Positions 2,651 through 61,245 of a stretch of DNA of 64,000 nt are shown piece after piece. Position numbers and translations under genes: made by a program. A model generated the notes under the pieces. That model was not told the DNA's origin. It ran no database searches and worked only from the letters and a program-made list of their open reading frames with translations. This DNA is from Eubacteriales bacterium (GTDB lineage Bacteria > Bacillota > Clostridia > Oscillospirales > CAG-382): assembly GCA_045538555.1 (NCBI GenBank), contig JAZSRP010000049.1, positions 65,476-129,475 of the forward strand. The letters run 5' to 3'. Within the stretch, counting starts at the first letter, position 1. Each line of letters starts with the position of its first letter.

Positions 2651-3712
2651 ATGTCAAAAATCAAGGTTGCAATTATCGGTTGCGGCTGCATTGCCAACAG
2701 TGCGCACATTCCTTCATATCTGGCAAACGATGAGGTGGAGATCAAGTATTTCTGTGATATCATTCCCGAGCGTGCACAGGAAGCGGTTGAAAAATATGGT
2801 TGCGGCATTGCTATTACCGATTATCACGATATTCTTACCGACCCCGAGGTGGAGGCGGTTTCTGTATGTACTCCCAACAAAATGCACACCGAGATCACTA
2901 TTGACTGCCTCAATGCAGGCAAGCACGTTCTGTGTGAAAAACCCGCTGCACGCACCTATGAGGAAGCAAAGCTCATGCAGGACGCACAGCACAAGAGCGG
3001 CAAAGTCCTCAACATCGGCGTTGTCAACCGTTTCAATGCGGCTGTTAACAAGCTTCGCGAGATGATCCTGGCGGGTGAGCTTGGTGAGATTTATCACGTG
3101 TACGTCAGCTTCCGTGCTCATCGTTCCATTCCCGGACTGGGCGGTGCCTTTACTACAAAATCCATCGCAGGCGGTGGCGTTCTCATCGACTGGGGCGTTC
3201 ATTATCTTGATATAGTTATGTATTGCACCGGTGATCCCACACCCAAGACCGTTTCTGCAAAAGCATTTTCAAAGCTTGGCGTTGATATGCCCAACTACGT
3301 TTATGAGGGAATGTGGTCCGAGAATACAAAGGATCTCAACGGCACCTATGATGTTGACGATTTTGTCACCGGATTTGTCCGCACAGAGGGTCCCACCATC
3401 ACGTTCAACGGCGCATGGGCACAAAATATCGGCGTTTCCGAGACGTATATTGACTTTATCGGCACAAAGGCAGGCGCGCGCCTCAATTACGGCGGAGATT
3501 TTACGGTTTATACCACTGCCTGCGGCGGCCTCGTAAACCTCAAGCCCAAATTCACTCCCAATGAGCACTTCAAAGAGGAGATCAACGGATTTATACGTTC
3601 TGTCAAGACCGGTGAAAAGCTTGCCTCACATATCGACACTGTAATCGTTACCGCAAAGATGATGCAGGCAATGTATGATTCTTCCGAGCAAGACAAGGAA
3701 ATTGTTCTCTGA
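2651..3712 (+). CDS. Gfo/Idh/MocA family oxidoreductase
   Basis: Trimmed to MSKIKVAIIGCGCIANSAH with GGAGG upstream. Has a Rossmann GxGxxA N-terminus and the EKP motif (LCEKPAA). Confidence 0.85.
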   Translation: MSKIKVAIIGCGCIANSAHIPSYLANDEVEIKYFCDIIPERAQEAVEKYGCGIAITDYHDILTDPEVEAVSVCTPNKMHTEITIDCLNAGKHVLCEKPAARTYEEAKLMQDAQHKSGKVLNIGVVNRFNAAVNKLREMILAGELGEIYHVYVSFRAHRSIPGLGGAFTTKSIAGGGVLIDWGVHYLDIVMYCTGDPTPKTVSAKAFSKLGVDMPNYVYEGMWSENTKDLNGTYDVDDFVTGFVRTEGPTITFNGAWAQNIGVSETYIDFIGTKAGARLNYGGDFTVYTTACGGLVNLKPKFTPNEHFKEEINGFIRSVKTGEKLASHIDTVIVTAKMMQAMYDSSEQDKEIVL

Positions 3713-3730
3713 TTTTCAATGATTTTCAAC

Positions 3731-3764
3731 AAAAAACGCTTCTCCGGCTGAGAAGCGTTTTTTT
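3731..3764. terminator. bidirectional intrinsic terminator between convergent genes
   Basis: Stem CGCTTCTC (3737-3744) with GAGAAGCG (3750-3757), flanked by an A-run and a T-run. Confidence 0.8.
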
Positions 3765-3781
3765 AGTTCAAAATCATTCTG

Positions 3782-4321
3782 TTAGTTCAAAATCATTCTG
3801 TTTTTTCTGAGAGCGTAAATAATGGGCGGGATAATCAGTAGCTGCACAATGATACCGGGCAACGCCGTAGTAAAAGCACCGGCCAAAAAAGAAGAAAAAC
3901 CAAAGCTTGTATTGCGGATACCTGCAATCAAAAACCTAACAGCGCCCCATGCGCCTCTGCCCGCAAGCATTGCGGTAATGAGGGCAAGATAATGCCAAAC
4001 CAGCTTTTTGGGCAGAGCGCGGTAAAGTGCGCCTGCCACAAATCCGTACGTTGCCAGCTCAAAAGCCATGGCAACGGCATCCGGCATCATGGCGGGAAAC
4101 CCAAACATGGTGGATCTGAGCAACGGTGCACTTGCGCCAATAACCAATCCCCATCCCTTTCCGCAAATAAATCCGCACAAAAGCACAGGAATATGCATTG
4201 GGGCAAACATTTTTCCTGCCTGGGGTACAGATCCGAGCAAAAAGGGAAGGAGTATTGCAAGAGCCAAAAACATTGCAGAATATACCAAACGAACCAGATT
4301 TGTGCTGGCAGATTTTTTCAT
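3782..4321 (-). CDS. ECF transporter S (substrate-capture) component, substrate unknown
   Basis: 179 aa starting MKKSAS, about 6 TM helices, glycine-rich small membrane protein typical of ECF S units. No riboswitch seen in the short leader. Confidence 0.6.
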   Translation of the reverse strand: MKKSASTNLVRLVYSAMFLALAILLPFLLGSVPQAGKMFAPMHIPVLLCGFICGKGWGLVIGASAPLLRSTMFGFPAMMPDAVAMAFELATYGFVAGALYRALPKKLVWHYLALITAMLAGRGAWGAVRFLIAGIRNTSFGFSSFLAGAFTTALPGIIVQLLIIPPIIYALRKNRMILN

Positions 4322-4411
4322 AGAACACCTCGGCAATTATCTTGACTGCATTATAGCATCAACGAAAAAAAAAAACAATAAAATGTGGAAAAAAACAGAG
4401 AAAAATGTTTC

Positions 4412-4440
4412 TTGACATATTGGCAAAAGGGATATATAAT
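4412..4440 (+). promoter_or_regulatory. consensus sigma-70 promoter
   Basis: TTGACA (4412-4417), 17 nt, TATAAT (4435-4440). Confidence 0.65.
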
Positions 4441-4469
4441 TTTTTCAGTAAAGTCTGGAGACGATGATT

Positions 4470-5666
4470 ATGAAAAATATTTTGGGCATACTTCTTGCCT
4501 TGCTCATGCTGACATCAATTCTTTGCTCCTGCGAGGATCTGAAAAATGAGGATGACTTTTCCATTCCTACTCTTACTATTCCCGAGGAGTATTCTCAGGT
4601 GAGCGAGGTTTCGGAGGAGCCGGTTTCGACGGTTATTACCGAGTACAAGGATCACGGCGTTCCACTCAAGGAGCGTTATCCCGACGACACCGATACCGCA
4701 CGCAACGTGTGGGATCTGGCTGTGCTTGACGGTTATCTGTACGTGGGGTGTGGTGATTTTGATACAAACGCCGGCCCATGCGACGTGTGGAGGATGGACA
4801 CTTCCACAGGAGAATGGCAGTTGTCCGGAACCGTCAACGATGAGCAGATCAACAGGTTTGAAATGATCGGCGGTTCTTTGGTTATCCCCGGCACGGATCC
4901 AAAAGGAAATTGGAGCCATGGCTCGCACTATCAGCACAACGGCACGGAGTGGCAGGAGATACGTACCATACCCGGCGGTGTTCATGTATTTGATATGATG
5001 ATGTTTGATGGAAAAATATTTGCGGGCCTCGGTGCTCTCGGCGCTGATTCTGCAGCCGCCGTTTCCCTTGACGGAGGGGAGAGCTTCAGCCCGGTTTCCT
5101 TTGTCCGCGACGGAAAGCCCTTTGACGTTTCCGACCACACCATCAACCGTGTATATGACCTTTTTGAAGTAAACGGAACTCTCTACGCACTGTACTGCAA
5201 TGATACCGAAACAAACCTCATCTTCCGCTATAACGGGCGTGAATTTGAATATGATTGCTCCTGGAGATACAAACTGATTTCCACCGGCCTGTGGTACGTG
5301 CCCATCGGGGACAAAACGCTGTATGGTACTGAGCAGTATATTGCCGCCGGATACTTGTATCGAGTATCAGAAAAAGCAGAAGATATCACATTTGTGCAGA
5401 TACCCGATGTTGAGCGTGTATGGGATGTTTTGACTTATGACGGCGTGATGTACGTACTGGGCGACCGCCTCACTGCAAAAGGATATGAGACGGTTGTGGT
5501 CTCCACCACTGACGGCAGTGAGTTTGAGGATGTTGCGCGGCTTCTTACCGGAGTGCCTGCACGCAGCTTTGCTTTTGACGGAAACTCTTTTTTCTTTGGA
5601 CTGGGAAACTTTGAGGATACAGGGGCTGACAGTGGAAGAATTATTTCTGCGGAGGTGATCAAATGA
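4470..5666 (+). CDS. lipoprotein, probable beta-propeller fold, function unknown
   Basis: The second ATG is chosen because GGAG lies 9 nt upstream. Signal peptide with lipobox LCSC. Repeated G-x-hydrophobic-Y/F blade-like segments. Confidence 0.7.
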   Translation: MKNILGILLALLMLTSILCSCEDLKNEDDFSIPTLTIPEEYSQVSEVSEEPVSTVITEYKDHGVPLKERYPDDTDTARNVWDLAVLDGYLYVGCGDFDTNAGPCDVWRMDTSTGEWQLSGTVNDEQINRFEMIGGSLVIPGTDPKGNWSHGSHYQHNGTEWQEIRTIPGGVHVFDMMMFDGKIFAGLGALGADSAAAVSLDGGESFSPVSFVRDGKPFDVSDHTINRVYDLFEVNGTLYALYCNDTETNLIFRYNGREFEYDCSWRYKLISTGLWYVPIGDKTLYGTEQYIAAGYLYRVSEKAEDITFVQIPDVERVWDVLTYDGVMYVLGDRLTAKGYETVVVSTTDGSEFEDVARLLTGVPARSFAFDGNSFFFGLGNFEDTGADSGRIISAEVIK

Positions 5667-34500: not shown

Positions 34501-34888
34501 ATGCGTTGATATAAAAAGGGAGATATAACTGAACATTCACCCGGCCCACCGCATTTTAGCAGTATCTTTTTTCGCTTTGCATAGAAAAACCGCTTTTTGT
34601 CTTATAACAATTCTAATCTCTATTATCCAAAAACGACAATTTGAGAGAAGAGAGAAGTACCAAGAGTGAAAAGAAAAAAGTACAAAAAGAAAACGACAAT
34701 CTTCTGTCGAAAATTGCCGTTTTTGTCTATGGGCTACAAAAAAGATATTTTTGCTTGCGCAAAAGTGATATAACTTCACTTCGTTCCGCAGTGATATTAT
34801 TTCGCCCATTACTCGCGAAGCGAATACCACTCGGCGAAAGCCGAATATCACTGCTAAGCAATACAACTCGCCACAGGCGAATATAACT

Positions 34889-34924
34889 GAAAACGACAAG
34901 TTTCGAAAGAAACTTGTCGTTTTC
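34889..34924 (-). terminator. 15-bp perfect hairpin directly 3' of the displaced tRNA-Leu end (probable original tRNA terminator)
   Basis: GAAAACGACAAGTTT (34889-34903) pairs with AAACTTGTCGTTTTC (34910-34924). Confidence 0.6.
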
Positions 34925-34978
34925 TGGTGCGGGTGACAGGACTTGGACCTGCACAACATTGCTGCCACTAGAACCTGA
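34925..34978. repeat. attL-like direct repeat: partial copy of the tRNA-Leu 3' end
   Basis: 54 nt identical to 54281-54334 except 34946 (G versus A). The mismatch disrupts the T-loop TTC. Confidence 0.9.
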
Positions 34979-35286: not shown

Positions 35287-35559
35287 TTAGTTTTCATGCC
35301 CCAACACGCAAACATTTTGACAAATGCTTTCGATATCGTGAGTGATATATGTTGAAAGCAAAGTCGTTTTAGTAAAGCTTATTCTCGACAATAGATTCAA
35401 GAAATAAAGTCGTTCTTCTGGGGCGAGTCTCGTGGTAGGCTCGTCAATTATCAGCAAATCAGGAGAATCTAACATTGTCTGTGCAATTCCGGCTCTGTGA
35501 AACATACCGTCTGGATATTTTCTAAGAAGTCTTTTCTTTTCGTCTTTAAGCCCTACGAT
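35287..35559 (-). pseudogene. ABC transporter ATPase fragment (C-terminal part only)
   Basis: Reads IVGLKDEKKRLLRKYPDGMFHRAGIAQTMLDSPDLLIIDEPT. The signature motif is degenerate (YPDGM), Walker B is present, and there is no Walker A. Confidence 0.7.
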
Positions 35560-35616: not shown

Positions 35617-35943
35617 AACGCATATATACCCTTGATACCTGATATTGAAAAATTATTTTTTAAAACCAAAAAGCAACAAGAGAGCAACCGAAGAAAGTGC
35701 TGCAAAGCCTACAATAAGGAATTTCTTGATTATGTATGTGTAGACAACATTGGGAATCTTTTATGACCGGATTATGTGGCGCAACTTTCACAGACTATGA
35801 TCAAAATAAACAACTTAAAGCTTCGGTATCACGATTTGCGATACGCTTGTGCTTCGCTACTACTTGCTAACGGTGTATCTTTAAAAGAAATCCAAGAGTG
35901 AATGGTACATTCGAATTTTAGTACTACGGAAAGTATTTCATAA
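35617..35943 (+). pseudogene. tyrosine integrase remnant (C-terminal third, two in-frame TGA stops)
   Basis: The translation YIPLIPDIEKLFFKTKKQQESNRRKCCKAYNKEFLDYVCVDNIGNLL*PDY...LRYHDLRYACASLLLANGVSLKEIQE*MVHSNFSTT aligns by eye with the C-terminus of the intact integrase at 52971..54146. Stops are at 35764-35766 and 35899-35901. Confidence 0.85.
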
Positions 35944-35994
35944 CAACATGGAGTTATAACTCAGTAAGTATAATTGCCAAGAAATCAAGCCTTA

Positions 35995-36023
35995 AGCAAA
36001 AAGGACGGTCAAAAAACCGTCCC
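35995..36023 (-). terminator. intrinsic terminator
   Basis: GGACGG (36003-36008) pairs with CCGTCC (36017-36022), with a T-run on the minus strand. The same stem sequence follows the intact integrase gene. Confidence 0.65.
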
Positions 36024-36054
36024 TAAAACATATAAAAAACTTTATATTTTAAGA

Positions 36055-37320
36055 TTATTTTTTTGTTTTTGAATACCCGTAGAAAATAAAAAAGGGTATT
36101 GCCATTACAAAAGCAGTAATTAACAGTGTCACTACTATAAATGATAATGCATTACTCGAGGCAAAATCTATCAGTTTGGGTTCAATATATTTATAAGCAA
36201 ATGTTTCAATAAACCACCAGCATAACAATATAACGTAAGAGCATATGATTATAATATTTAATATTACTATGTATGGATATCTCTTAACAATTCTGTTAAT
36301 GAAATTGCATTTGGGATTGCCACAATCGCCCTCTGGACAACCTTTACAATTGACTGCTATGCTCTTATTTGCCAAACGGGCTATCATAAACATAAATAAG
36401 AACAACAAGTTCATAAGGATATGTCCCATTAAAACAAATCTCCCAACATTTACTTGAACAATATTAGATATGCTAAGATTTGTAATTTCTCCCGTTACAG
36501 TAAAATATGCGCCGACAATCACAAAAATTATTGATACAAATATACCCAAGATGGTAAGAACATTGGTTAATAATGAACTCATTTCGGTTTTTGTTTTATC
36601 GAGATCTTCTTTAGTATCATTAAAATTAGTTATTGCTTTATTTAAGTTTTCGCTTGTGGTTTCAAATTCCGTTTTAACTTTATCAAACTTTTGATTAACT
36701 TTATCGATTTTTTTATCTACAATTTCATTGGCTTCTTTGATTTTTTTTTCTACGTTATTATCAAATTCCTTTAAAACTGTTTCGTGATTTTTGATTTGTT
36801 CTTCGAGTTTTTCGTTAGGTAAACTCGAAAACTTCTCAAACTCCTTTTCTTGCTTCTTAATATCTTCTTCAGACTTACTTATTCCTTTTCTAACAAGTAA
36901 TTCGTACTTTAAGGCGGATGAAAACATATTAACATTATATCTGAATTCATTATCATTTAAATAATAATAAAATCCGTCTTTTTCTTGTTTAATTAAACTA
37001 CTATCACATGATTCAAGCGTGTCGCCGAAAGTTTTGATAATAGCTATAGGAGCAATCAACTCGTTCCATCGTTTGTTTTCCAACAAATCAAACATAAAGA
37101 AATAGTGCGGTCTAAACGATGGGTTGATCGAGAAAATATTATATAATTTTATAAGAATAGATTCGATCTTTTTGTCTTTTTCTTGCTTTTCGATACCAAT
37201 ATAATCAACATTAGAAAAACAGATTTCTTTTGCCATCTGTTCGATTAATTTTTGTTGCCTGACTCTTGGATTATCAATTGTCCCGCTTGTTTTTTCGAAA
37301 TTCTCTTTCTTATCATCCAT
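36055..37320 (-). CDS. hypothetical protein: cytoplasmic N-domain, long K/E-rich coiled coil, 4 C-terminal TM helices with a CxxC..C..C loop
   Basis: 421-aa ORF. Its ATG overlaps the stop of the upstream Panacea-domain gene by 8 nt. No recognisable catalytic motif. Confidence 0.75.
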   Translation of the reverse strand: MDDKKENFEKTSGTIDNPRVRQQKLIEQMAKEICFSNVDYIGIEKQEKDKKIESILIKLYNIFSINPSFRPHYFFMFDLLENKRWNELIAPIAIIKTFGDTLESCDSSLIKQEKDGFYYYLNDNEFRYNVNMFSSALKYELLVRKGISKSEEDIKKQEKEFEKFSSLPNEKLEEQIKNHETVLKEFDNNVEKKIKEANEIVDKKIDKVNQKFDKVKTEFETTSENLNKAITNFNDTKEDLDKTKTEMSSLLTNVLTILGIFVSIIFVIVGAYFTVTGEITNLSISNIVQVNVGRFVLMGHILMNLLFLFMFMIARLANKSIAVNCKGCPEGDCGNPKCNFINRIVKRYPYIVILNIIIICSYVILLCWWFIETFAYKYIEPKLIDFASSNALSFIVVTLLITAFVMAIPFFIFYGYSKTKK

Positions 37321-37798
37321 TTATTACGATCTCGCTTTTTAAATCATATACACCCGAAAAATAACTTTGTATGGATTTAGTGCTAATAATATTGTAATCG
37401 ATAGAATCGCAAATAGCTTCTTTCCATGGTGTTTGTTTTTTAGTAGCAATTCCAAGCATTTGCCTATCATATATACCGTATTCCAATATGAAATTTTTAA
37501 AATAATCTCTAATCAGCGAAGGTATTGTGAAAACAAAATCATATGGCTTTGTTATAGGATCGTATTCCCAATCATTAAAGATAAACTCTAATTCTTTTAT
37601 ATATGGTCCACAAGGATATGCATATATATCCTCTTCAAAAATCTTTTCGCCATATTTTGCCAAATAACATCCTTGCGCCAAATATAGCAACTTATTCACT
37701 TTGTAAAAGTCCATTAAGAATTTTTCATCAGACATAGACTCCTTAAATTCTATTCCGTAAGAAATAGCCAATTTAGCTATATCGGCGGCTTTGCACAT
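37313..37798 (-). CDS. Panacea (DUF4065, SocA/GepA-like) domain protein, antitoxin-like
   Basis: 161 aa with AAGGAG upstream. NKLLYLAQGCYLAKYGEKIFEEDIYAYPCGPYIKEL matches my recollection of the DUF4065 core (KLxYyAqg...g.pLf.e.feAw..GPv...vY). Confidence 0.65.
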   Translation of the reverse strand: MCKAADIAKLAISYGIEFKESMSDEKFLMDFYKVNKLLYLAQGCYLAKYGEKIFEEDIYAYPCGPYIKELEFIFNDWEYDPITKPYDFVFTIPSLIRDYFKNFILEYGIYDRQMLGIATKKQTPWKEAICDSIDYNIISTKSIQSYFSGVYDLKSEIVING

Positions 37799-38231
37799 TT
37801 TATATCGGCTCCTTAAAATAAAATACTATTTAATATTAATATATTTCGAAAACTAAAACTGGTGACAGTATGCCAGCAGTGGTTTTTTGAATCAGCTCGG
37901 TAGGATTTACTGTTACCTACTGTCTATGGCATGTGGTTAATTCGCTTGAGTAGTTTAACAAAAACTTGTTGAAAAGTCAAGTATATATTCTATTTTATGT
38001 TCATAATAACAAAATATACATTACAGTGGAAGTGTACTGAAATTCAAAGTTGATAAAATAATAAAGGATTAATTTGACTTGACAATATCGATAGAGTTAA
38101 TATTCAATGTTGTAAAGCATGTGTACAATTTATTCACTTAAAATGAAAACCTTGCTGATGGTGTATGCCAAATGAATAGGTTTTCTTTTAATTTTCTTCG
38201 ATTCAGTTTGGGAAAAAATGTGCAATATTTA

Positions 38232-38305: not shown

Positions 38306-38932
38306 ATGAAGAGTATTCGAAATGAAGCTAAACCAAAGATAATTGAATTTATAGATGCCTATTATAACGATTATTTTACTGTTCCTACTGTACGTGAGAT
38401 TGCGGCAGGAACAGGTATATCTGTTTCTACAGTTCATCGTTGCTTGAATGTGATGAAAGAAAACGGTGAGCTTGAATATAGCGGACGCCGTTCTATTTCG
38501 ACTCCGCGTACTGCTATGGAAGGTAGCTATAATGCAATGCCTGTTCTCGGTTATGTTGCTTGTGGACCGGGTCAGGAGGAAGAAGAACAGCTTCTTGAAT
38601 ATATCCGTATGCCCGAAACTATTGTCGGTAATGATGAATGCTTCGCTTTAATTGCAAAAGGCGAGTCTATGGTTGACATTGGAATCTATCCCGGCGATTA
38701 CGTATTTGTCCGTAAACAAAACACCGCAAGCGTCGGCGACGTTGTTGTCGCGCTTCTTGATGGCAAGAATAATTTAAAGGTTCTTGATTACGATAGCAAT
38801 ACAAAACAATACGTTCTCAAATCCTGTAACGCAGATAAAGAAACCTATGAGGATAAAATTGTTGAAGGTGAGCTTCAAATTCAAGGTGTTGCGGTTTCTG
38901 TATCCCATAAGCTCGGGAAAGTGAAGATTTAA
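38306..38932 (+). CDS. LexA-like repressor (winged HTH plus S24 autopeptidase)
   Basis: N-terminal HTH VREIAAGTGISVSTVHRCL. The cleavage-site region is VLGYVACGPG. Ser is in KGESM and Lys in NNLKVL. Confidence 0.85.
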   Translation: MKSIRNEAKPKIIEFIDAYYNDYFTVPTVREIAAGTGISVSTVHRCLNVMKENGELEYSGRRSISTPRTAMEGSYNAMPVLGYVACGPGQEEEEQLLEYIRMPETIVGNDECFALIAKGESMVDIGIYPGDYVFVRKQNTASVGDVVVALLDGKNNLKVLDYDSNTKQYVLKSCNADKETYEDKIVEGELQIQGVAVSVSHKLGKVKI

Positions 38933-38933
38933 T

Positions 38934-41102
38934 ATGGATAACTTACTTAACGGACTAAACGAATCACAAATAGAAGCTGTTACAACTACCGACGGATATA
39001 TTCGCGTTATTGCAGGCGCAGGAACAGGGAAGACGCGTGCTCTTACTCATAGATATGCCTACCTCGTAAACGAGCTTGGTATATCACCTTCGAATATACT
39101 TTGCATTACCTTTACAAATAAAGCCGCAAACGAAATGAAAAAGCGTATAAAGCGCATGCTAGGCGACGAGTTCGATACTTCGTTTGTCGCAACGCTTCAC
39201 GCTTTCTGCACGAGAATATTGCGCGAGGAAATATATAAGCTCTTTTATCCCGATAATTTCATTGTATTGGATAATGTCGATCAGAAGAAGATCCTTGAAG
39301 AAGTCTATGACGAAATGTGTATTCGTATGGATACCGCAAGTTTCAAGTTTATGATCGATCAGATACGCTATTATAAAAATCTTATAACCTATGTAGAATA
39401 TCTGTCAAACCCTAATTTCGATTATTCAACACTTGTAGCGCAAAATAAGACGGAGGAGATAATCTTTCGTTACATAAATAAGCAACGCAAGTATTTCGGA
39501 CTTGATTTCTTCGACCTTATCAATTTTGTAATATACCTTTTCAGAACATATCCCGATGTACTCGAAAAATGGCAGAAAAAGCTCTGCTACATTATGGTTG
39601 ATGAATTCCAAGACATCACCGCAAAGGAATTCAAACTTATTCGCAGACTCTCAGAATTCAACCGTAATTTGTTTGTGGTTGGCGACCCCGACCAGAACAT
39701 ATACGAATGGCGCGGCGCAAATATGAGTGTTATCGTGGATTTTGAGTCTTGGCTGAACAACGAATGCTTCGAGGATAACCTCAATCTCAAATCACGCGAT
39801 ATTGTTTTAAGCAAGAATTACCGTTCCACAAAGAGTATATTAAGCGTAGCCAATTCATTGATTGAGAAGAACCAAAATCGTGTAGAAAAGGCATTAAGCG
39901 GTTCTTTCGAAGACGGCGAAAAGGTTAAATATCTCCACGCAAAGAACGATAAGGATGAAATCAAATATATTTGCGACGAGATCGCCAACCACGTAAAGAA
40001 TGGCGGTAAATACAGCGATATTGCCGTGCTATACCGTTCTAACTACGTTTCACGCTTTGTTGAGCAGGGCTTTCTTTCAAGAAACATACCTTATGTCGTT
40101 TACGGCGGTGTCGGTTTTTATGAACGAGCAGAAATTAAGGATGTATTGTCTTATATGCGCCTTCTGGAGCATACTGACGATGATTTGTCCTTTAAGCGAA
40201 TTATAAATGTGCCAAGGCGTAAAATCGGTAAGATAAAATTAAAGGTATTATCAGAATATGCCGAGCAAAACGGAACGTCTTTGTATGATGCGTTAAAAGC
40301 GTTATGTGAAACCGATACATTCAAATCCTGCAAGGCGAAGGAGTTTGTCGCTCAAATAGAATTACTTCGTCAACAAGCAGACGAGTTTGCGGTTTCTGAA
40401 CTTCTTCAAGCGATCCTTAATAAAACGGGTTATGAACTGTATATCCGTGAAAGCGGGGATATAGAACGCTTGGATAACGTTTCCGAGCTTATGCGTAGCA
40501 TCGTTACACAGGAAAACGAATTCGGCGAGCCCTTAACGCTTTCGACCTTTTTGCAGAATATAACGCTTCTGCGCGACAGCGATGTGGAGGATAAGAGTGA
40601 TTGCGTTAAGATTATGACAATACATACCGCAAAAGGTCTTGAATTCGACACGGTATTTCTTGTCGGACTTACGGAGGGTATTTTTCCTTCTGCAAGAAGT
40701 CTCGAAGAACGCAAGAACGATGCTCTTGAGGAAGAACGTCGCCTTTGCTTTGTTGCAATAACAAGAGCAAGAAAACGTCTGTACCTCACCGAAAGCGAGG
40801 GATTTGGTGTAAAGGGCTTTTCAAAAGTTCCGTCACGCTTTGTATTTGATATCGACAAATCATTGCTGGATAAAATCGGAACTGTTTCCGCAGACATTAT
40901 GGATGAATATGTCGTATTGAAGAAACGGTTTGATAAAACCGAACTTGAAGTATATAAGGTCGGTGACCAAATACGCCATAAGGTGTTCGGTGAAGGCATA
41001 GTCGAGGAAGTGGACGAGGAAACAAGAACCTATTATATCCGCTTTGTCAACGGCAGAAAACCGATCAACTTTAACTATAACGGCTTAAGCCATGTTTTTT
41101 AA
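38934..41102 (+). CDS. UvrD/PcrA/Rep family ATP-dependent DNA helicase
   Basis: Motifs AGAGTGKT, TFTNKAANEM, VDEFQD, NYRS and TIHTAKGLEF, with a C-terminal Tudor-like tail (GDQIRHKVFGEGIV). Confidence 0.9.
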   Translation: MDNLLNGLNESQIEAVTTTDGYIRVIAGAGTGKTRALTHRYAYLVNELGISPSNILCITFTNKAANEMKKRIKRMLGDEFDTSFVATLHAFCTRILREEIYKLFYPDNFIVLDNVDQKKILEEVYDEMCIRMDTASFKFMIDQIRYYKNLITYVEYLSNPNFDYSTLVAQNKTEEIIFRYINKQRKYFGLDFFDLINFVIYLFRTYPDVLEKWQKKLCYIMVDEFQDITAKEFKLIRRLSEFNRNLFVVGDPDQNIYEWRGANMSVIVDFESWLNNECFEDNLNLKSRDIVLSKNYRSTKSILSVANSLIEKNQNRVEKALSGSFEDGEKVKYLHAKNDKDEIKYICDEIANHVKNGGKYSDIAVLYRSNYVSRFVEQGFLSRNIPYVVYGGVGFYERAEIKDVLSYMRLLEHTDDDLSFKRIINVPRRKIGKIKLKVLSEYAEQNGTSLYDALKALCETDTFKSCKAKEFVAQIELLRQQADEFAVSELLQAILNKTGYELYIRESGDIERLDNVSELMRSIVTQENEFGEPLTLSTFLQNITLLRDSDVEDKSDCVKIMTIHTAKGLEFDTVFLVGLTEGIFPSARSLEERKNDALEEERRLCFVAITRARKRLYLTESEGFGVKGFSKVPSRFVFDIDKSLLDKIGTVSADIMDEYVVLKKRFDKTELEVYKVGDQIRHKVFGEGIVEEVDEETRTYYIRFVNGRKPINFNYNGLSHVF

Positions 41103-41117
41103 TAAGGAGAATTAAAA

Positions 41118-41621
41118 ATGGCAGAGATAATAAAAGTTTTCAAAGAGAATATCCCCAATATGCGCTTTATCGGAAAGAAGTATGGCGAATTCGGTCATTG
41201 GGGTGAATTTTGGGTAAATGATTGGTTTAGTTTGCTTGAAAAATCAATGGGCGGTACAGATGCAATACTCAATATTTGGGAAAACGGTGGCGGTTATGTA
41301 GGGCTCGAGCATTGGACTCCTAATGCACCGTTTGAATATTGGCTCGGCATGTTTGCGCCTATTGATACAGAGGTTCCCGATGGGTTTGAATACATAGATT
41401 TTACCGATCTTGCTCTTGGTACTTGCTGGATATACGGATGTGAAGCAGAGGTTCACGATGCTTCTGCTTGTCAACCAGCATTGATACAAAACGGTATGAC
41501 CATTTGGAAAGATGCTAACGGCGGTACTTGGTCGTTCGAAAACTGCCTCTGCCCAAGATATACTACACCCGACGAAAACGGAAAAATCATTCTTGATTAC
41601 TGTTATTTTGTGGAGAAATAA
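41118..41621 (+). CDS. GyrI-like / effector-binding-domain-like small protein (tentative)
   Basis: 167 aa. MRFIGKKY...WGEFWVNDWFSLLE resembles the C-terminal domain of the XRE regulator at 47259..47933. The fold assignment comes from motif memory only. Confidence 0.4.
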   Translation: MAEIIKVFKENIPNMRFIGKKYGEFGHWGEFWVNDWFSLLEKSMGGTDAILNIWENGGGYVGLEHWTPNAPFEYWLGMFAPIDTEVPDGFEYIDFTDLALGTCWIYGCEAEVHDASACQPALIQNGMTIWKDANGGTWSFENCLCPRYTTPDENGKIILDYCYFVEK

Positions 41622-41623
41622 TT

Positions 41624-42574
41624 ATGGAAAACATTATTAACTGGTTACTCGAAGAAAAAGAACCTTCTATTAGATACAGAACTCTTACCGAGATTTTGGA
41701 CAAACCCGAAACCGATCCCGAAGTTATTGAAGCGAAAGAAGCGGTGCTTCAATCAAAGAATGTTTGCCGTCTGTTTGACCGCTTGGATGACAGAGGATTG
41801 TTTCCTCATATTCAAAAGTTTTACGGCAATTTTACTACTTTCAGTTATCTCTATGCTCTTGCAGAACTTGGCTTGAAAAAGGGTGATCCTCATATTAACG
41901 AGATAGTTGATTGGATATTGATTCCCGGCGAGGACAAGCATGAGCATTTTATGCAGAAAGAGTTTCAAAATGAACATGCATATCTGCTTGACGAAAGCAA
42001 TCTCGGCAGTTGCCGCCAGACCGATTTCCTCGGTACATTGTTAAGACTTGGTTTTGGCGATGATGAGAGAGTAAAGAAGTTGATAGATGCGTTTATCGAA
42101 AAGAACAGATTTGACGGAGGTTATCTCTGTAAATGGAAAAAGAGCCGACATAAAGGTCAAACACCCAAAAGCTGTGTAGGTACTACTGTTAATGCGTTAA
42201 GAGTATTTTCCTATCTTCCCGAAGAATACAGGAACACCGATGCATATAAAAACACACTTGAATATTTTGTCAGCAGAAATATGATTCACAGCAAAATCAA
42301 TCCCGATGAGATCATCTGCTCTACAAATGCTTTCTACAACGGTTGCGGAATGTCTCACGCTTTTGTTCTTGCCGATGCAATGAGCCGTTTAGGACTTGCC
42401 AACATACCCGAAATGAACGAGGTATGGGAGATTATTGAAAGTAAAAAAGATGCCGAAGGCAAAGTAGTGTTAGAAGCTACCGATACAAAGAAAACACTTA
42501 TTATGGACGGCGTAGGCAAGCCTAATAAATATCTTACTCTTAATTTGCTTTTGAGTTATAAACATAGAGGATAG
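41624..42574 (+). CDS. hypothetical protein (possible alpha/alpha-toroid fold)
   Basis: 316 aa. Its N-terminus INWLLEEKEPSIRYRTLTEIL is similar to the N-terminus of 44792..45838. Confidence 0.6.
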   Translation: MENIINWLLEEKEPSIRYRTLTEILDKPETDPEVIEAKEAVLQSKNVCRLFDRLDDRGLFPHIQKFYGNFTTFSYLYALAELGLKKGDPHINEIVDWILIPGEDKHEHFMQKEFQNEHAYLLDESNLGSCRQTDFLGTLLRLGFGDDERVKKLIDAFIEKNRFDGGYLCKWKKSRHKGQTPKSCVGTTVNALRVFSYLPEEYRNTDAYKNTLEYFVSRNMIHSKINPDEIICSTNAFYNGCGMSHAFVLADAMSRLGLANIPEMNEVWEIIESKKDAEGKVVLEATDTKKTLIMDGVGKPNKYLTLNLLLSYKHRG

Positions 42575-44791: not shown

Positions 44792-45838
44792 ATGAAATTT
44801 CAAAAACATATAGATTTTCTTCTTGACAACGCTTGTACGAGCATTAAGTTTCTCGTTCATCGAGATTTTTTGCATACACCTTTGACAGAACCGTTTATGC
44901 AGAAGATGCGCGACGAGATATTGGAGCAAGAAAATATTAAAAAGCATCTTGCTTGCCAACATCCCGACGGATGGTTTGGTGACGAGCTTCACGGCGGCGA
45001 ATACGGAATGGAGCGCTCTATCGGTACACTTTTGAATGCAGGTGTTGAAAAAGAACATCCGGCAATCCAAAAAGGTATTCATGCGCTTATTACTCCCGAA
45101 ATATCATCGCAACACAAAAATTGGTTTCACGGCGGCGACGGATTGGACGCCGAAGGCAGAGGTGGTAATAATGCGATTATTGCATCTATTCTTTCTTGGG
45201 TAGGGTATGACGAAACTTATCCCATTTTGGCTGAACAGATCGTGCTCTCTTGGGAACACGTCGAAGCGGTTCGCAATTATAACGCCGTTGATGATTTCAC
45301 CAAGAAAGGCAAAAACGAGAGATACTATAAACCTAACGCTCGTTTCCCCGGCGCGAATCACATCGGATTGCTTAATGCAACACAAAGCTGGCGATCTAAT
45401 GAAAGAATGGAAATTGCAAAAGCTTCTATGAAACACGCCTATGAGTTGATGAAAGATTTTGATGAATACATCACCTTCAAAAAGCCGAAAGAATTAGGAG
45501 GCAGCTTCGTCGGTCCGTTTAACTATAATTGGCAGGCATTAAAGCCGACAGACGGAAAACAGTTATACGAAATTATCAATGATCCGTATAACTTCAGGTT
45601 TGCGTTTTGGCTTGGTTCTGTTTCGGGTGTTCCCGATTGGGTTCGTCAGTCGAACGAAACATATTTTGTCTTGGCTGACTTTCTTGAAAAAGAGGATAAC
45701 GTCGATGTTATCCCCGATAGAGTGTTCAGCGCATTCCGTAGAGTATCGGGCAAAGAACCCAATTATAGAAAACGCTCTACTGCGAAGTGCGATTTGACAT
45801 ATGCATTGCTTCGTGCCGTTTGGAATATGGTGGATTAA
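44792..45838 (+). CDS. hypothetical protein (distant paralog of 41624..42574)
   Basis: 348-aa ORF with GAGG upstream. Shares an N-terminal motif with 41624..42574. Confidence 0.6.
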   Translation: MKFQKHIDFLLDNACTSIKFLVHRDFLHTPLTEPFMQKMRDEILEQENIKKHLACQHPDGWFGDELHGGEYGMERSIGTLLNAGVEKEHPAIQKGIHALITPEISSQHKNWFHGGDGLDAEGRGGNNAIIASILSWVGYDETYPILAEQIVLSWEHVEAVRNYNAVDDFTKKGKNERYYKPNARFPGANHIGLLNATQSWRSNERMEIAKASMKHAYELMKDFDEYITFKKPKELGGSFVGPFNYNWQALKPTDGKQLYEIINDPYNFRFAFWLGSVSGVPDWVRQSNETYFVLADFLEKEDNVDVIPDRVFSAFRRVSGKEPNYRKRSTAKCDLTYALLRAVWNMVD

Positions 45839-45998
45839 AAGGAAAACGGGAAAATCCACGACTGAATTCCGTAGATCCCATCTATGATTTCTGTGTTTAT
45901 CTCAACATAGCATTTGAATGTGTATCAGAACTTATGAAAATGTATCAGAAATTTGTTTGAAAACTAAACGAATCTAAAATTAAGGAGAAAGAGTATAA

Positions 45999-47129
45999 AT
46001 GAGTAAACCAACAATATTTTTCAGCCACTCGTCAAAAGATAAGGATGCAATACTAGCAATTAAGAATAAGTTGGATAATTCAACTGGCGGAGCATTGGAT
46101 ATATTTATGTCAAGCGATGGACAAAGTATTCCTTTTGGTACAAATTGGATACACAAAATTGAGGAAGGTTTGCAAGCTGCGAAAATTATGTATGTATTTG
46201 TAACCGAAGTATCGGTTACTTCTGGATGGATATATTTTGAGGCTGGCTTTGCATATTCAAAAGGAATTCAAGTTGTTCCCGTCGGTATCGGCATCGATAT
46301 TGGAACTCTAAAGGCTCCTTTGAATTTGCTTCAAGGTTTTAATATCACATCTGAGGATAGTTTGAATAATTTTATTACTATTATAAACAGAACATTTGAT
46401 TATCACTTTAAAGAAGCGTTTGATAAAAATGATTATACTGAGATAATAAGTTTAACTTCGTTGAACACAAATAAGGCAGTTGGATTTGAAAAAATTGTTC
46501 GTCAAACAGAATGCTCAATTTACTCAGACCAAACATCTAATGGCGAGAAAAAAGAGTATGACTTAGAGTTATGTTTCAATAAGATAATTGACTACTTAGA
46601 CCGCAATTCTATCAGTTATTCTCGGGATAATAAATATCACGGAATCGAGTCTCGCGTTTGTATAATGGTATATGGAATAAAGATGGTTTACTACAAAGCC
46701 CAAAAGAAAAATCCAAATGTTCGATATTCGTCAGATGAGCCGGGGGAAATCAAGTTTCAAATATCTCCGTATAATTTTACCAAGTCGTTTGATTTACTCA
46801 AGGAATTGTTATTGCTAATGGAAGACAAACCCACCCACTATCTTAGAGTATATTTACAAGATGAGTATGAATATGTGAATTCGGATGAAAACGTAGCATC
46901 AATTATATCTAATGCAGATGGATTCGATTTTAACAAGTCGTATATCGGTGGATACATTTACAACGAGCTGGATTTGCAGTTTTATATTTTCGAGGAACAT
47001 CGCGACATACGAAATCGTCAAACCGATCATTTGATTTCAATAGTATACAAATGTGATACAGTTTGTGCTAACCATATTACTAACTTGCTACACAGACTTT
47101 GCGATATTGGTTTGATTTGTGAAAAGTAG
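45999..47129 (+). CDS. TIR-domain protein with an unassigned ~240-aa C-terminal region
   Basis: AAGGAG upstream. The N-terminus PTIFFSHSSKDKD...IMYVFVTEVSVTSGWIYFEAGFAY fits the bacterial TIR pattern (beta-A FxSxxxxD and a conserved Glu after a WxxxE-like motif). Confidence 0.7.
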   Translation: MSKPTIFFSHSSKDKDAILAIKNKLDNSTGGALDIFMSSDGQSIPFGTNWIHKIEEGLQAAKIMYVFVTEVSVTSGWIYFEAGFAYSKGIQVVPVGIGIDIGTLKAPLNLLQGFNITSEDSLNNFITIINRTFDYHFKEAFDKNDYTEIISLTSLNTNKAVGFEKIVRQTECSIYSDQTSNGEKKEYDLELCFNKIIDYLDRNSISYSRDNKYHGIESRVCIMVYGIKMVYYKAQKKNPNVRYSSDEPGEIKFQISPYNFTKSFDLLKELLLLMEDKPTHYLRVYLQDEYEYVNSDENVASIISNADGFDFNKSYIGGYIYNELDLQFYIFEEHRDIRNRQTDHLISIVYKCDTVCANHITNLLHRLCDIGLICEK

Positions 47130-47258
47130 ATTTGATACATTTTTAGTATCTATCAAAATATGATAAAAGTCCTTGGCTTTTGCTATACGCAACGAAATGT
47201 TGCTTGATTATTCGTGTTACTTTTGATAAACTGAATTCATCAAAAGAGGTGTTGCAAT

Positions 47259-47933
47259 ATGATAGGAGAGAACATAAAAGATTTTAGAGTAAAAAAGAAT
47301 ATAACTCAAGAAGAACTTGCAGAAAAATTGAATGTGACAAGGCAAGCAATCTCAAAATGGGAAAACAACAAAGGCGAGCCGGACTTGAATATGCTTTGCA
47401 ATATCGCAACTGTGTTGTCCGTGACCGTAGAAGAATTGCTTGATGGCGAATGTACTGTTCAAATGGAAGCCATATGCAAAGAAATACAACCTGCACTTCG
47501 CTTTATTGGGAAAAGATACAAGGGTAACGAAAGCATTCGCACCAAGTGGAATCTGTGGAAAGAAAATGGTTGGTTTACTGTTTTGGAAGGTTTGGATAAC
47601 CGATATGGAAACAATTATATCGGCGCAAAACGTATTGTTGATGGCATGTTGGAGTATTGGATAGGCATGATTTTCTTTCAAAATGCTGCAGTCCCTAATG
47701 GGTTTAACTATATTGATATTGATGCAGTAAATTTGGCTGTATTTCAGTTGCGCGGAAAAGCACATAAAATCACTTCCTTTGAAACACATAACCTTTGTCT
47801 CGATGAACTTGACAAAAACGGAATGATACGTTTTGAAGATCATTGGTGTTTTGAGTGTTATGATGATAAGTCTATTGATTACATTGGAACTGACAAATCA
47901 ATGACAATTGATTATAAAATATCCATATTGTAA
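47259..47933 (+). CDS. XRE-family HTH regulator fused to a GyrI-like/effector-binding-like domain
   Basis: The N-terminal ITQEELAEKLNVTRQAISKWENNKGEPDL is a classic XRE HTH. The C-terminal domain resembles 41118..41621. Confidence 0.8.
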   Translation: MIGENIKDFRVKKNITQEELAEKLNVTRQAISKWENNKGEPDLNMLCNIATVLSVTVEELLDGECTVQMEAICKEIQPALRFIGKRYKGNESIRTKWNLWKENGWFTVLEGLDNRYGNNYIGAKRIVDGMLEYWIGMIFFQNAAVPNGFNYIDIDAVNLAVFQLRGKAHKITSFETHNLCLDELDKNGMIRFEDHWCFECYDDKSIDYIGTDKSMTIDYKISIL

Positions 47934-52970: not shown

Positions 52971-54146
52971 ATGCTGAAAGGCACTGTTCAAAACAAAAAT
53001 GGTATGTTTTACACCGTAATAAGCTACGAAGATGAAAACGGTAAACGAAAACAGAAGTGGGAAAAGACCGGATTAGCCGTCAAGGGAAACAAGCGTAGAG
53101 CTGAGGAGCTTTTAAGACAACGCTTGGAAGAATTTGAACTGTTGCAAAAACAGCCACCAGATGAAGAAACTAAAAAAGACATAGCGTTTTCAAAGTTTAT
53201 GTCAAACTGGTTGGCGATGGTTAAATGCTCGATTGAGATTACAACCTTCGGTAGTTATCAATATTTCATCGAGAAGCGCATTAATCCTTACTTCGACAAA
53301 TTGGGTATGACGCTACAAAAAATCAAAACCAGCGACATTCAGGAGTATTACAACACGATGCTCGGCAAAGGAACAAAGTGGAATTCGGTTGTTAAACATC
53401 ATGCGGTCATTCACAAGGCGCTTGATTACGCAGTGAAAATGGAGTATATACCTTTTAATCCTGCGGCTCGTATTGAAACGCCTAAGAAACAGAAGTATAT
53501 CGGTGATTACTATAATCAAGATGAACTTAACCAACTGTTTTCAGTCATTAAAGGCGATACGGCAGAGGTTGCGATAGTTCTTGCTGCGTATTACGGTTTA
53601 AGACGGAGTGAAGTTCTTGGCATCAAATGGAGCGCAATCGATTTTAAGGAAAAGACTATCTGTATTAAACATACCGTCTGCAAAACACAGATCAATGGAG
53701 AAGACGTGATAATTGCGAAAGATAGGACAAAGAATAAGTCGAGCATAAGAACTTTGCCGTTGATTCCTGCAATAGAAAAGCTTTTATTAGAAATCAAGAA
53801 AAAGCAGGAAGCAAACCGTAAAAAATGTAAAAAGGCTTATTGTAAAGAGTATGTTGACTATGTCTGTGTTGACAGTATGGGTGTGAGGTTAAAACCCGAT
53901 TATTTAACACAACACTTGCAACACATTTTAAAGAAATATAAATTGAAACATATTCGATTTCACGATCTCAGACATAGCTGTGCGAGCTTGTTGTTGGCAA
54001 ATGGTATATCGCTGAAAGAAATTCAAGATTGGTTAGGTCATTCGGATTTCAGTACAACGGCAAATATTTATGGACATTTGGATTACGGTGCAAAATTGAA
54101 ATCAGCAGGGAAGATTGCAGAAATGCTTACCATTGATAATGATTAA
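52971..54146 (+). CDS. int: tyrosine-type site-specific integrase
   Basis: 391 aa. Catalytic Arg in GLRRSEVLGIKW, HDLRHSCASLL (HxxR), and LGHSDFSTTANIYGHL (His and Tyr). The N-terminal arm-binding-like domain is intact. Confidence 0.93.
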   Translation: MLKGTVQNKNGMFYTVISYEDENGKRKQKWEKTGLAVKGNKRRAEELLRQRLEEFELLQKQPPDEETKKDIAFSKFMSNWLAMVKCSIEITTFGSYQYFIEKRINPYFDKLGMTLQKIKTSDIQEYYNTMLGKGTKWNSVVKHHAVIHKALDYAVKMEYIPFNPAARIETPKKQKYIGDYYNQDELNQLFSVIKGDTAEVAIVLAAYYGLRRSEVLGIKWSAIDFKEKTICIKHTVCKTQINGEDVIIAKDRTKNKSSIRTLPLIPAIEKLLLEIKKKQEANRKKCKKAYCKEYVDYVCVDSMGVRLKPDYLTQHLQHILKKYKLKHIRFHDLRHSCASLLLANGISLKEIQDWLGHSDFSTTANIYGHLDYGAKLKSAGKIAEMLTIDND

Positions 54147-54280: not shown

Positions 54281-54334
54281 TGGTGCGGGTGACAGGACTT
54301 GAACCTGCACAACATTGCTGCCACTAGAACCTGA
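54281..54334. repeat. attR-like direct repeat (3' 54 nt of the functional tRNA-Leu)
   Basis: Matches 34925-34978 at 53 of 54 positions. Confidence 0.9.
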
Positions 54335-54367
54335 ATCTAGCGCGTCTGCCAATTCCGCCACACCCGC
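54281..54367 (-). tRNA. tRNA-Leu (anticodon CAG), type II with long variable arm, CCA encoded
   Basis: Reverse complement is GCGGGTG-T-GGCGGAATTGGCAGACGCGC-TAGATTCAGGTTCTA-GTGGCAGCAATGTTGTGC-AGGTTCAAGTCCTGT-CACCCGC-ACCA. This is 87 nt and folds as a cloverleaf with anticodon loop TTCAGGT. Confidence 0.92.
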
Positions 54368-61126: not shown

Positions 61127-61133
61127 TGATTGT

Positions 61134-61206
61134 GTCTTTCGTGACTGGCGGAAACAGTGGTCGACCACAGGGGAGCGGAGGACAAATATGCCGACCGCCT
61201 GGGCAG
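61134..61206 (+). promoter_or_regulatory. ZTP (pfl motif) riboswitch
   Basis: GTCTTTC-GTGACTGGCGG-AAACAGTGGTCGACCACAGGGGAGC-GGAGGAC, a short linker, then GCCGACCGCCTGGGCA. It contains the conserved GACUGGCG, GGGGAGC and CCGCCUGGGCA blocks. P1 forms from GTCTTTC and GGAGGAC. It sits upstream of purE. Confidence 0.9.
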
Positions 61207-61245
61207 TTCTATTTTGCACACAATGGGATAGGACTGCTTTTTTTC
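61203..61245 (+). terminator. riboswitch expression-platform terminator
   Basis: GCAGTTCTAT (61203-61212) pairs with ATAGGACTGC (61228-61237), then TTTTTTTT. The 5' arm overlaps the GGGCA of the aptamer. Confidence 0.8.

Follow-up and report, generated by a model that had tools for sequence, protein, structure and literature searches.

A probable mobile PanAT toxin-antitoxin operon behind a leader resembling that of ribosomal protein L10 in an uncultured Clostridia bacterium

Results

An overlapping gene pair with its own expression signals

The 64,000-nucleotide stretch of DNA analyzed here, called the window below, comes from an uncultured Clostridia bacterium (assembly GCA_045538555.1, contig JAZSRP010000049.1, positions 65,476 to 129,475). 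On its reverse strand it carries two overlapping genes that probably form a PanAT toxin-antitoxin (TA) operon, in which a Panacea-domain antitoxin, PanA, is paired with a membrane toxin, PanT. The upstream gene, panA (37313..37798), encodes the predicted antitoxin, a stand-alone Panacea/DUF4065 protein of 161 amino acids, and the downstream gene (36055..37320) encodes a partner of 421 amino acids. At their junction (...ATAAATGGATGATAAG...) the ATG of the large gene lies at 37320..37318 and the TGA of the small gene at 37315..37313, so that the two share the 8 nt ATGGATGA at 37313..37320. Both open reading frames and the overlap are exactly as described in a first-pass annotation of this DNA, which was made from the sequence alone. 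With the stop codon of panA inside the start of its partner and the antitoxin gene first, translation of the partner is expected to depend on that of panA. A Shine-Dalgarno sequence, AAGGAG, can be read 10 nt 5' of the panA ATG (37809..37814, reverse strand), and no comparable ribosome-binding site (RBS) was found ahead of the start of the large gene.

An intrinsic terminator with a 10-bp stem and a T-run (36001..36024, reverse strand) closes the operon and is kept within a block of DNA common to its relatives. Upstream, a consensus scan found a candidate sigma-70-type promoter at 37952..37980 on the same strand, with TTGACT at 37980..37975, a 17-nt spacer and a TG-extended TAAACT at 37957..37952. 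It matches nine of 12 consensus positions, in an AT-rich region that shows no enrichment of promoter-like sites. The site lies inside the 2.2-kb block common to loci L009 to L012 (see below), just 5' of where the Rfam leader match starts, and we infer that it may serve as the promoter of the panA operon. The pair forms a sharp compositional trough, with a GC content of about 28% against about 45% outside.

Both proteins have homologs. Compared with relatives that are 83% identical, the ratio of nonsynonymous to synonymous substitution rates (dN/dS) is 0.09-0.10 for PanA and 0.13-0.16 for the partner, and within the partner it is 0.08-0.10 in the N-domain, 0.26 in the coiled coil and 0.11-0.14 in the transmembrane (TM) domain. 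Ratios of 0.09-0.16 indicate that both genes are maintained by purifying selection, and together with the homologs they argue that the gene pair is more than a chance arrangement of reading frames.

The small protein belongs to the Panacea family

The first-pass annotation had assigned the small protein to DUF4065/Panacea and proposed a Pfam search as the check. That search bore the assignment out, as PanA scores 38.6 bits against SocA_Panacea (PF13274), for which the cut-off is 25.7. Residues 25-157 also match phrog_1281, a phage family of unknown function (E 2.7e-18), a homolog at 91% identity carries the NCBI name 'DUF4065 domain-containing protein', and PF13274 is recorded among precomputed matches in the cognate PanAs of relatives. 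Neither sequence nor profile searches found a PDB relative of PanA, and it had no match in the PADLOC models of anti-phage defence.

The partner is a four-helix membrane protein with an extra cytoplasmic domain

The layout that the first-pass annotation gave for the partner, an N-domain followed by a K/E-rich coiled coil, four TM helices and a Cys-rich loop, agrees with its hydropathy, its composition and an AlphaFold (AF2) model. Residues 1-145 (36886..37320) form an all-helical N-domain, predicted to be cytoplasmic, with the motifs FRPHYFF and FRYNVDMF..ALKYE. Residues 146-252 (36565..36885) have the composition of a long coiled-coil-like helix (19% K, 17% E). Residues 253-421 (36058..36564) make up the 4-TM domain, the conserved core of the superfamily described below, with the motifs TILGIFVSII, NLLFLFMFM, YPY and WW; hydropathy places the four hydrophobic segments at about 254-276, 293-315, 347-370 and 388-410. 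Between TM2 and TM3 lies a loop of the form C325-x2-C328-x4-C333-x4-C338 (36307..36348), which reads C325-K-G-C328-PEGD-C333-GNPK-C338. By positive-inside analysis the first 250 residues and the K-rich tail are predicted to be cytoplasmic, as is the Cys loop on account of its five K/R residues.

The AF2 model was built on 15 homologs and has a mean predicted local distance difference test score (pLDDT) of 74. It is confident for the all-helical N-domain (residues about 18-140, pLDDT 82-93), has a single long helix (168-279) running on into TM1, and is not confident at the Cys loop. In an alignment of 15 family members C325, C328, C333 and C338 are invariant, as are W368-W369, Y348/Y350 and Q289. 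The membrane domain is strongly conserved and the N-domain conserved, and the coiled coil varies in both length, through indels, and sequence. From this pattern of cysteines the Cys4 loop is possibly a small zinc knuckle.

No curated family accounts for the partner. Every match in Pfam, NCBIfam and PADLOC lies in the K/E-rich helix and below threshold. Those to Prominin (28.4 bits, cut-off 34.3), SMC, Rad50 and tape-measure proteins were rejected as coiled-coil noise from that helix, and the PADLOC matches to ZorA (Zorya), LeoB and JetC as coiled coil at residues about 143-300 (E 1e-6 or weaker). Residues 147-366 do match phrog_5763, also of unknown function (E 2.8e-18). The N-domain had no match in Pfam, PDB or Foldseek searches, profile searches of PDB sequences gave nothing relevant, and a Foldseek search with the full-length model returned no PDB match at E <= 0.001. 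The top PDB candidates of that search, RIFIN and the Mcl-1/Bcl-2 family (E of about 1, probability at most 0.16), were set aside as not interpretable. Among BFVD models one stood out, an uncharacterized 285-amino-acid Siphoviridae protein (probability 0.99, E 0.027).

The pair is conserved as a mobile unit

Close relatives of the 421-amino-acid protein are rare. They make up 17 clusters among 5.8 billion and occur in three of 185,579 species genomes, all of them metagenome-assembled genomes of uncultured Clostridia. We determined the genomic context at 17 distinct loci (designated by L numbers) encoding relatives of the partner at 23-83% identity, distant ones included. In all 17 a Panacea gene coding for 139-167 amino acids lies directly upstream on the same strand. 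The two genes overlap by 8 nt in L004 and L009-L011, 14 nt in L001 and L002, 20 nt in L019 and 32 nt in L005, and some loci have a short gap in place of the overlap. Across ten loci the pairwise identities of the PanAs and of their partners are correlated (r = 0.965). The survey of co-occurrence that the first-pass annotation had called for thus found the two genes together at every locus.

What surrounds the pair differs from locus to locus. The flanks hold integrases (L001), housekeeping genes (L002), TnpV and RHS genes (L004), the end of prophage lysis cassettes (L005, L007 and L016-L018), a phage tail module (L006), an IS200-like/Y1 transposase (L009-L011), a Helicobacter prophage (L019), a Streptococcus satellite phage (L020) or a 39.6-kb viral contig (L024). 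With blastn, positions 35816..38020 of the window (reverse strand) are 83.5% identical over 2.2 kb to L009-L011 and L012, whose other flanks differ. This common DNA takes in the leader, panA, the partner gene, the terminator and about 240 nt beyond, which indicates that the unit moves with its own expression signals. A tblastn search of INPHARED phages with the 421-amino-acid protein gave no match; phage records were reached only with a short-form relative, P0162. No relatives were confirmed in a search of viral contigs with a PanA alignment.

Several further observations concern the sites that such modules occupy. In the Enterocloster prophages L016-L018 (positions 3554-4852) a short-form module, made up of a 147-amino-acid PanA and a 283-amino-acid partner separated by a 3-nt gap, always sits between the endolysin gene and lysogeny-side helix-turn-helix (HTH) genes; the prophages are mosaic, with differing holins and lysins, and this short form is very common, being indexed in 618 blocks of the collection. 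The pair of L006 (5459-7236) lies within a block of phage tail genes, behind a tape-measure-like gene (PhageMin_Tail), where morons are not usually found. A tRNA gene is found 100-150 nt upstream of the leader and panA in L001 (5196-5269), L002 (5194-5267) and L012 (3146-3229), and a tmRNA gene just downstream of the module in L007 (3034-3382); the unit tends to occupy tRNA/tmRNA integration hot spots. At L147, a distant locus coding for a PanA and a T4-type partner, a match below threshold to the abiF RNA motif (RF03085, 31.8 against 37 bits) directly follows the toxin gene (4290-4326, forward strand).

The partner is related to the T4 cluster of PanA-associated toxins

PanA is known as a hyperpromiscuous antitoxin, and three membrane-targeting PanTs have been validated (Kurata et al. 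2022, PNAS, PMC8832971). One of them, the cluster T4 PanT of Helicobacter sp. 13S00482-2, carries a coiled coil in its N-terminal part and TM helices in its C-terminal part, depolarizes cells without permeabilizing them to SYTOX and is neutralized by its PanA (PMC8832971). The same dataset holds about 40 T4 members, mostly from Firmicutes plus Helicobacter and Campylobacter, in which the antitoxin gene comes first, overlaps of -8 or -11 are common and the same spurious coiled-coil labels from CDD appear (PMC8832971). The partner in the window has the same architecture, with the coiled coil ahead of the TM helices.

Homology to a listed T4 member was found through a prophage of H. rodentium ATCC 700285 (L019), which the tblastn search with P0162 matched. 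It encodes a 144-amino-acid Panacea protein (2436-2870, 60 bits) overlapping by 20 nt a gene for 294 amino acids (2851-3735), in agreement with the row 'H. rodentium ATCC 700285 ... T4 ... -20' of Kurata et al. Aligned with the profile of the window family by hhalign, the 294-amino-acid protein gives a probability of 92.4% (E 5e-7) over the ...TILGIF.S.I... region of TM1-TM2. It scores 33.0 bits with the family hidden Markov model (HMM) and 94.6 bits with that of the superfamily, while the best of 500 composition-preserving local shuffles reached about 11. A protein of the Streptococcus satellite phage Javan54 behaves similarly (96.4% probability; 46 and 81 bits with the two HMMs).

The superfamily itself is large. 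In an exhaustive profile search 1,072 representative clusters passed E <= 1e-3; a limit of 1e-10 retained 395 of them and one of 1e-30 retained 60. The majority match through the coiled-coil/TM part alone and have lengths of 250-500 amino acids. Nearly all of 160 representatives have three or four C-terminal TM helices; 38 have a comparable Cys-rich loop at the same position, and only 18 the FRPHYFF motif. The window partner is about 15-28% identical to the wider representatives. We conclude that the 421-amino-acid protein is a divergent member of the T4-type PanT superfamily, in a sub-family that adds an N-domain and a Cys4 loop of its own. The first-pass annotation had stressed its size; the protein is indeed far larger than typical small toxins, but at about 250 to 500 amino acids such lengths are not unusual in this class.

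A leader resembling that of rplJ precedes panA

Directly ahead of panA, at 37808..37947 on the reverse strand, lies a leader resembling the ribosomal protein L10 (rplJ) leader attenuator RF00557 over the full model (1-138). The element was absent from the first-pass annotation. Nucleotide similarity to L001 and L002, whose proteins are about 50% identical, runs about 130 nt upstream of the panA start. In the alignment a core that hardly varies, CCRUAGACAGUAGG...CAGUAAAUCCUACCGAGGUG, comes before a hairpin and a T-run. RF00557 has a gathering score of 44 bits. Its matches are always directly upstream of panA, on the same strand and over the full model, with 64.2 bits in L015, 55.5 in L001, 47.9 in both L002 and L009 and 44.4 in L012; L024 (37.2 bits) and L004 (35.7 bits) fall below the gathering score. 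L015 and L024 stand for branches in which the partner shares only about 23% identity with that of the window.

The predicted kink-turn/UAA binding core of the window leader (AGACAGUAGGUAACAGUAAAUCCUACCGAG, 37925..37896, reverse strand) contains AGACAGUAGG-UAACAGUAAAU-CCUACCGAG and is nearly identical to the core of genuine Clostridial rplJ leaders. Fifteen nt past it comes a predicted terminator hairpin (about 37880..37859; dG -7.0, with one stem mismatch) and a U-run (37858..37849), and the 5' flank of the core, AUGCCAU, is predicted to pair with the 5' arm of the terminator (dG -10.6). All seven panA leaders that we examined have a kink-turn core with a UAA-containing loop and, 11-15 nt past the core, a predicted terminator hairpin with a U-run. 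Their terminator sequences differ by lineage (predicted dG -7 to -15), and in each the 5' flank of the core could alternatively pair with the 5' arm of the terminator (dG -8 to -14). Between the window and L009 the 30-nt core is identical at 29 positions although synonymous sites have diverged (dS 0.5-0.7).

The same core motif was found in metagenomes, where a genuine rplJ follows in 69 of 69 classifiable cases. In the window, the genes downstream are panA and its partner and not rplJ-rplL. A scan of 2.9 million viral contigs with the motif alone gave six matches; five were rejected as chance occurrences in GC-rich coding DNA, and the sixth, L024, is another module of leader, PanA and T4-type partner. 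The leader is absent from L005-L008, L014, L016-L018, L019, L020 and L147. Taken together, the near identity of the core to genuine rplJ leaders and the metagenome cases indicate a real rplJ-type regulatory RNA that a subset of the modules has co-opted. The target of L10(L12)4 in B. subtilis is an anti-antiterminator hairpin with a kink-turn and UAA motif (Yakhnin et al. 2015, PMC4538822), and binding to it blocks the antiterminator and so promotes termination (PMC4538822). A link between the L10 leader and PanA is mentioned neither in the PanA papers nor in the literature we searched, a search outside of which many subscription journals lie.

The pair lies at the far end of a tRNA-Leu island

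A tRNA-Leu(CAG) gene (54281..54367, reverse strand) marks the proximal end of a genomic island, and a tyrosine integrase gene adjoins it (52971..54146, forward strand). A 54-nt att-like direct repeat at 34925..34978 is identical at 53 positions to the 3' half of the tRNA gene (54281..54334). The repeat, the tRNA gene and the adjoining integrase bound an island of about 19.4 kb with the PanAT module at its far end. The GC content of the island is 28-42%, against about 45% in the flanks, and other cargo includes genes for an HTH protein, a GNAT protein and a methyltransferase.

Divergent from panA (38306-42574, forward strand), a gene for a LexA-like protein with HTH and S24 peptidase domains directly precedes one for a 722-amino-acid UvrD-type helicase, which matches the PADLOC models GajB (2.6e-101) and RTasHel (1.7e-107); two reading frames without a family (167 and 316 amino acids) follow. 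These genes could be a defence-type operon, though no GajA partner was seen among them. A second stretch (44792-47933, forward strand) encodes a 376-amino-acid TIR-domain protein (Pfam TIR_2, 6.4e-10, with weak ThsB-like PADLOC matches) flanked by a 348-amino-acid reading frame of unknown family and an XRE-type HTH protein, and may be another defence candidate in the island.

Between the module and the att repeat are a truncated ABC-transporter ATPase fragment (35287-35505, reverse strand) and, on the forward strand at about 35700-35900, a C-terminal tyrosine-recombinase fragment broken by a stop. L001 has two intact integrases at the equivalent place downstream of the pair, which suggests that the module once travelled with its own recombinase. 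Just outside the distal repeat, the Gut-1 RNA motif (RF01706, gathering score 50) has a near-threshold match at 34819-34889 on the reverse strand (45.7 bits, E 5.5e-7), with a second, weaker match at 34740-34802 on the forward strand. The host backbone carries a ZMP/ZTP riboswitch (RF01750) at 61131-61211 on the forward strand (67.5 bits, gathering score 39).

Discussion

A probable membrane-acting toxin and its antitoxin

We consider it probable, at roughly 70%, that the pair is a self-contained, horizontally mobile PanAT TA operon at the distal end of the tRNA-Leu island of this uncultured Clostridia bacterium. The PF13274 match, the synteny at all 17 loci and the co-variation of the two proteins give computational support to the earlier proposal of a membrane effector held in check by a PanA-like protein. 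That proposal had left the module as one of a type that could not be named. It can now be given a name, PanT cluster T4, through homology to the H. rodentium member.

In such an operon panA would be translated first and its partner through the ATGGATGA overlap, so that the toxin would never be made without its antitoxin. The partner is predicted to sit in the inner membrane with its N-terminus inside, so that N-domain, coiled coil, Cys4 loop and C-terminal tail would all face the cytoplasm. By analogy with the Helicobacter sp. T4 toxin, a partner free of PanA may dissipate the membrane potential without forming large pores. A stand-alone Panacea protein has been found to neutralize its membrane PanT directly, contacting a segment ahead of the TM region, as mapped by mutagenesis (Ernits et al. 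2023, PMC10440598). That contact makes the cytoplasmic N-domain and coiled coil the likely docking site of PanA, and PanA may, by the same analogy, neutralize the toxin by binding this part.

Several points weigh against parts of this account. The PF13274 alignment of PanA takes in no more than half of the domain model (profile positions 2-51 of 113), and an AF2 model of PanA alone, from an alignment of five sequences, has a pLDDT of 44 and does not confirm a Panacea fold. The link to T4 runs through one member, which was matched by genome, Panacea neighbor and overlap length and not by accession, and the region that aligns with the narrow family profile spans only 66 columns. The Helicobacter protein lacks both the N-domain and the Cys4 loop, and the mode of action could differ. 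A T4 member from a C. difficile prophage, WP_074138355.1, was scored 'not Toxic' in E. coli (PMC8832971). As to the leader, the window copy reaches only 32.6 bits (E 0.0011), short of the gathering score. It is the weakest of the copies, with C for G at the conserved position 37895 beside the kink-turn (CCGAGG to CCGAGC) and a terminator weakened by its stem mismatch, and a leader is carried by only seven of the 16 PanA-linked loci that were not ascertained through the motif.

It is unlikely that the pair is no TA system at all and that the membrane protein is a non-toxic accessory factor of phages and mobile elements, serving for example in superinfection exclusion, lysis timing in the manner of holin and antiholin, or membrane sensing, with PanA as its cytoplasmic regulator or chaperone. 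Many relatives do lie right after holin and endolysin genes at prophage ends (L005, L007 and L016-L018) and one within a tail module (L006), but the slot after the lysis cassette is also a classic position for morons and defence genes, and the module occurs as well without phage genes nearby (the window island, L001, L002 and L009-L011). The non-toxic C. difficile member and the size and multiple domains of the partner, unlike those of classical small toxins, also speak for an accessory role; yet experiments have shown another protein of this published class to be toxic and to be neutralized by its PanA, and a translationally coupled, antitoxin-first order is typical of TA systems. Less probable still is a TA system working like SocAB (type VI), in which PanA would be an adaptor that hands the toxin over to ClpXP, FtsH or another protease. 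In its favor, Panacea (PF13274) is the domain of SocA itself, and either of these proteases could reach a membrane toxin that has cytoplasmic domains. However, PanA scores 12.8 bits against the NCBIfam SocA_antitoxin equivalog model NF047745, for which the cut-off is 190, and on this ground we rejected SocAB-type membership. The partner is moreover unrelated to SocB, and the PanAs tested by Kurata et al. and Ernits et al. form complexes with their toxins and neutralize them directly. That the window copy is an inactive remnant at an eroded island end seems very improbable. Truncated recombinase and ATPase fragments lie directly downstream, but both reading frames are intact and full length compared with their homologs, with an RBS and a terminator, and the dN/dS values led us to reject a pseudogene pair.

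A possible input from ribosome assembly

For the PanAT operon, the leader raises a further and more tentative possibility, somewhat doubtful as matters stand: that a mobile PanAT lineage, spread over Clostridial islands, prophages and a viral contig, co-opted an L10 leader, and that the pool of free L10(L12)4 sets transcription of the operon as a TA or abortive-infection switch. Transcription would pass through the co-opted rplJ-type leader, where free L10(L12)4 on the kink-turn hairpin would, as in B. subtilis, favor the terminator, and operon expression, and hence replenishment of the antitoxin, would be tied to the state of ribosome assembly. Were rRNA synthesis to stop or ribosomes to be damaged, as in phage takeover, starvation or an attack aimed at ribosomes, the amount of free L10(L12)4 would go up and transcription would end in the leader. 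A labile antitoxin would then not be replenished, and the membrane toxin could depolarize the cell.

The likeness to the L10 leader may also have no regulatory meaning, a view to which we give some credence without favoring it. A fragment of a host rplJ leader, captured along with the module, could serve as no more than a promoter-proximal spacer or a terminator, with the copy in the window decaying, as its low score, its substitution at a conserved position and its mismatched stem would suggest; more than half of the PanA-linked loci also manage without the element. Set against this is the near identity of the core in the window and L009 at the divergence noted above, its retention in L001 and L002, and its presence in L015 and L024, where terminators of differing sequence keep the same architecture. 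Retention of the core across such diverged loci points to selection on the element, or to its repeated acquisition, and not to drift.

The pair thus appears to add a rare sub-family to the known class of PanAT systems that have a T4-type membrane toxin, and the co-option of an rplJ leader is the unexpected part. The extra conserved cytoplasmic domain and the Cys4 loop of this sub-family could show how T4-type toxins are gated. What triggers TA and abortive-infection modules is a long-standing question. Autoregulation of transcription by stand-alone Panacea antitoxins has been judged improbable, and the role favored for them is that of a sensor of unknown cues (Ernits et al., PMC10440598). An rplJ-type attenuator on a PanAT lineage points to a concrete input that can be tested: how much L10(L12)4 is free, a measure of ribosome biogenesis. 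If borne out, this would be a rare case of a ribosomal-protein riboregulator over non-ribosomal, horizontally mobile genes, and of a TA or abortive-infection switch that reads ribosome-assembly status through a borrowed element.

Comparison with known systems

The closest known systems are the T4 PanAT pairs. As in these, a stand-alone Panacea protein is encoded first, its gene overlaps that of the toxin, and the toxin has a coiled coil followed by TM helices; most carriers are Firmicutes or Epsilonproteobacteria, prophages are a frequent location of the modules, and the TM1-TM2 region is homologous to that of the H. rodentium member. The window sub-family differs in being very rare and in having a distinct helical N-domain of 145 residues (FRPHYFF) and an invariant Cys4 loop. 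The phage families phrog_5763 and phrog_1281, matched by the partner and PanA respectively, carry no functional annotation. Short forms of about 283 amino acids with PanA upstream are common in Enterocloster prophages; the greater part of the N-domain is missing from these phage forms, as is, in most cases, the Cys4 loop.

The small PanTs of clusters T3 and T12 (E. coli STEC O31 and Bartonella) likewise depolarize membranes and are neutralized by PanA, with the Panacea domain contacting a cytoplasmic segment ahead of the TM region, but they are small peptides that make large, SYTOX-positive pores, and no homology to the window protein was detected. SocAB, the type VI TA system of Caulobacter, has an antitoxin with the same Pfam domain, SocA_Panacea. 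It differs in its toxin, SocB, which is unrelated to the partner and binds the DNA clamp, and in its mechanism via a protease adaptor, and PanA falls outside the SocA equivalog. The leader, finally, is like RF00557 and the rplJL attenuator of B. subtilis in its hairpin with kink-turn and UAA motif and, as predicted from sequence, in a downstream terminator with a U-run and a mutually exclusive alternative pairing. It differs in that the loop of the hairpin is shorter in the panA leaders and that panA and a membrane toxin, on mobile elements, lie downstream.

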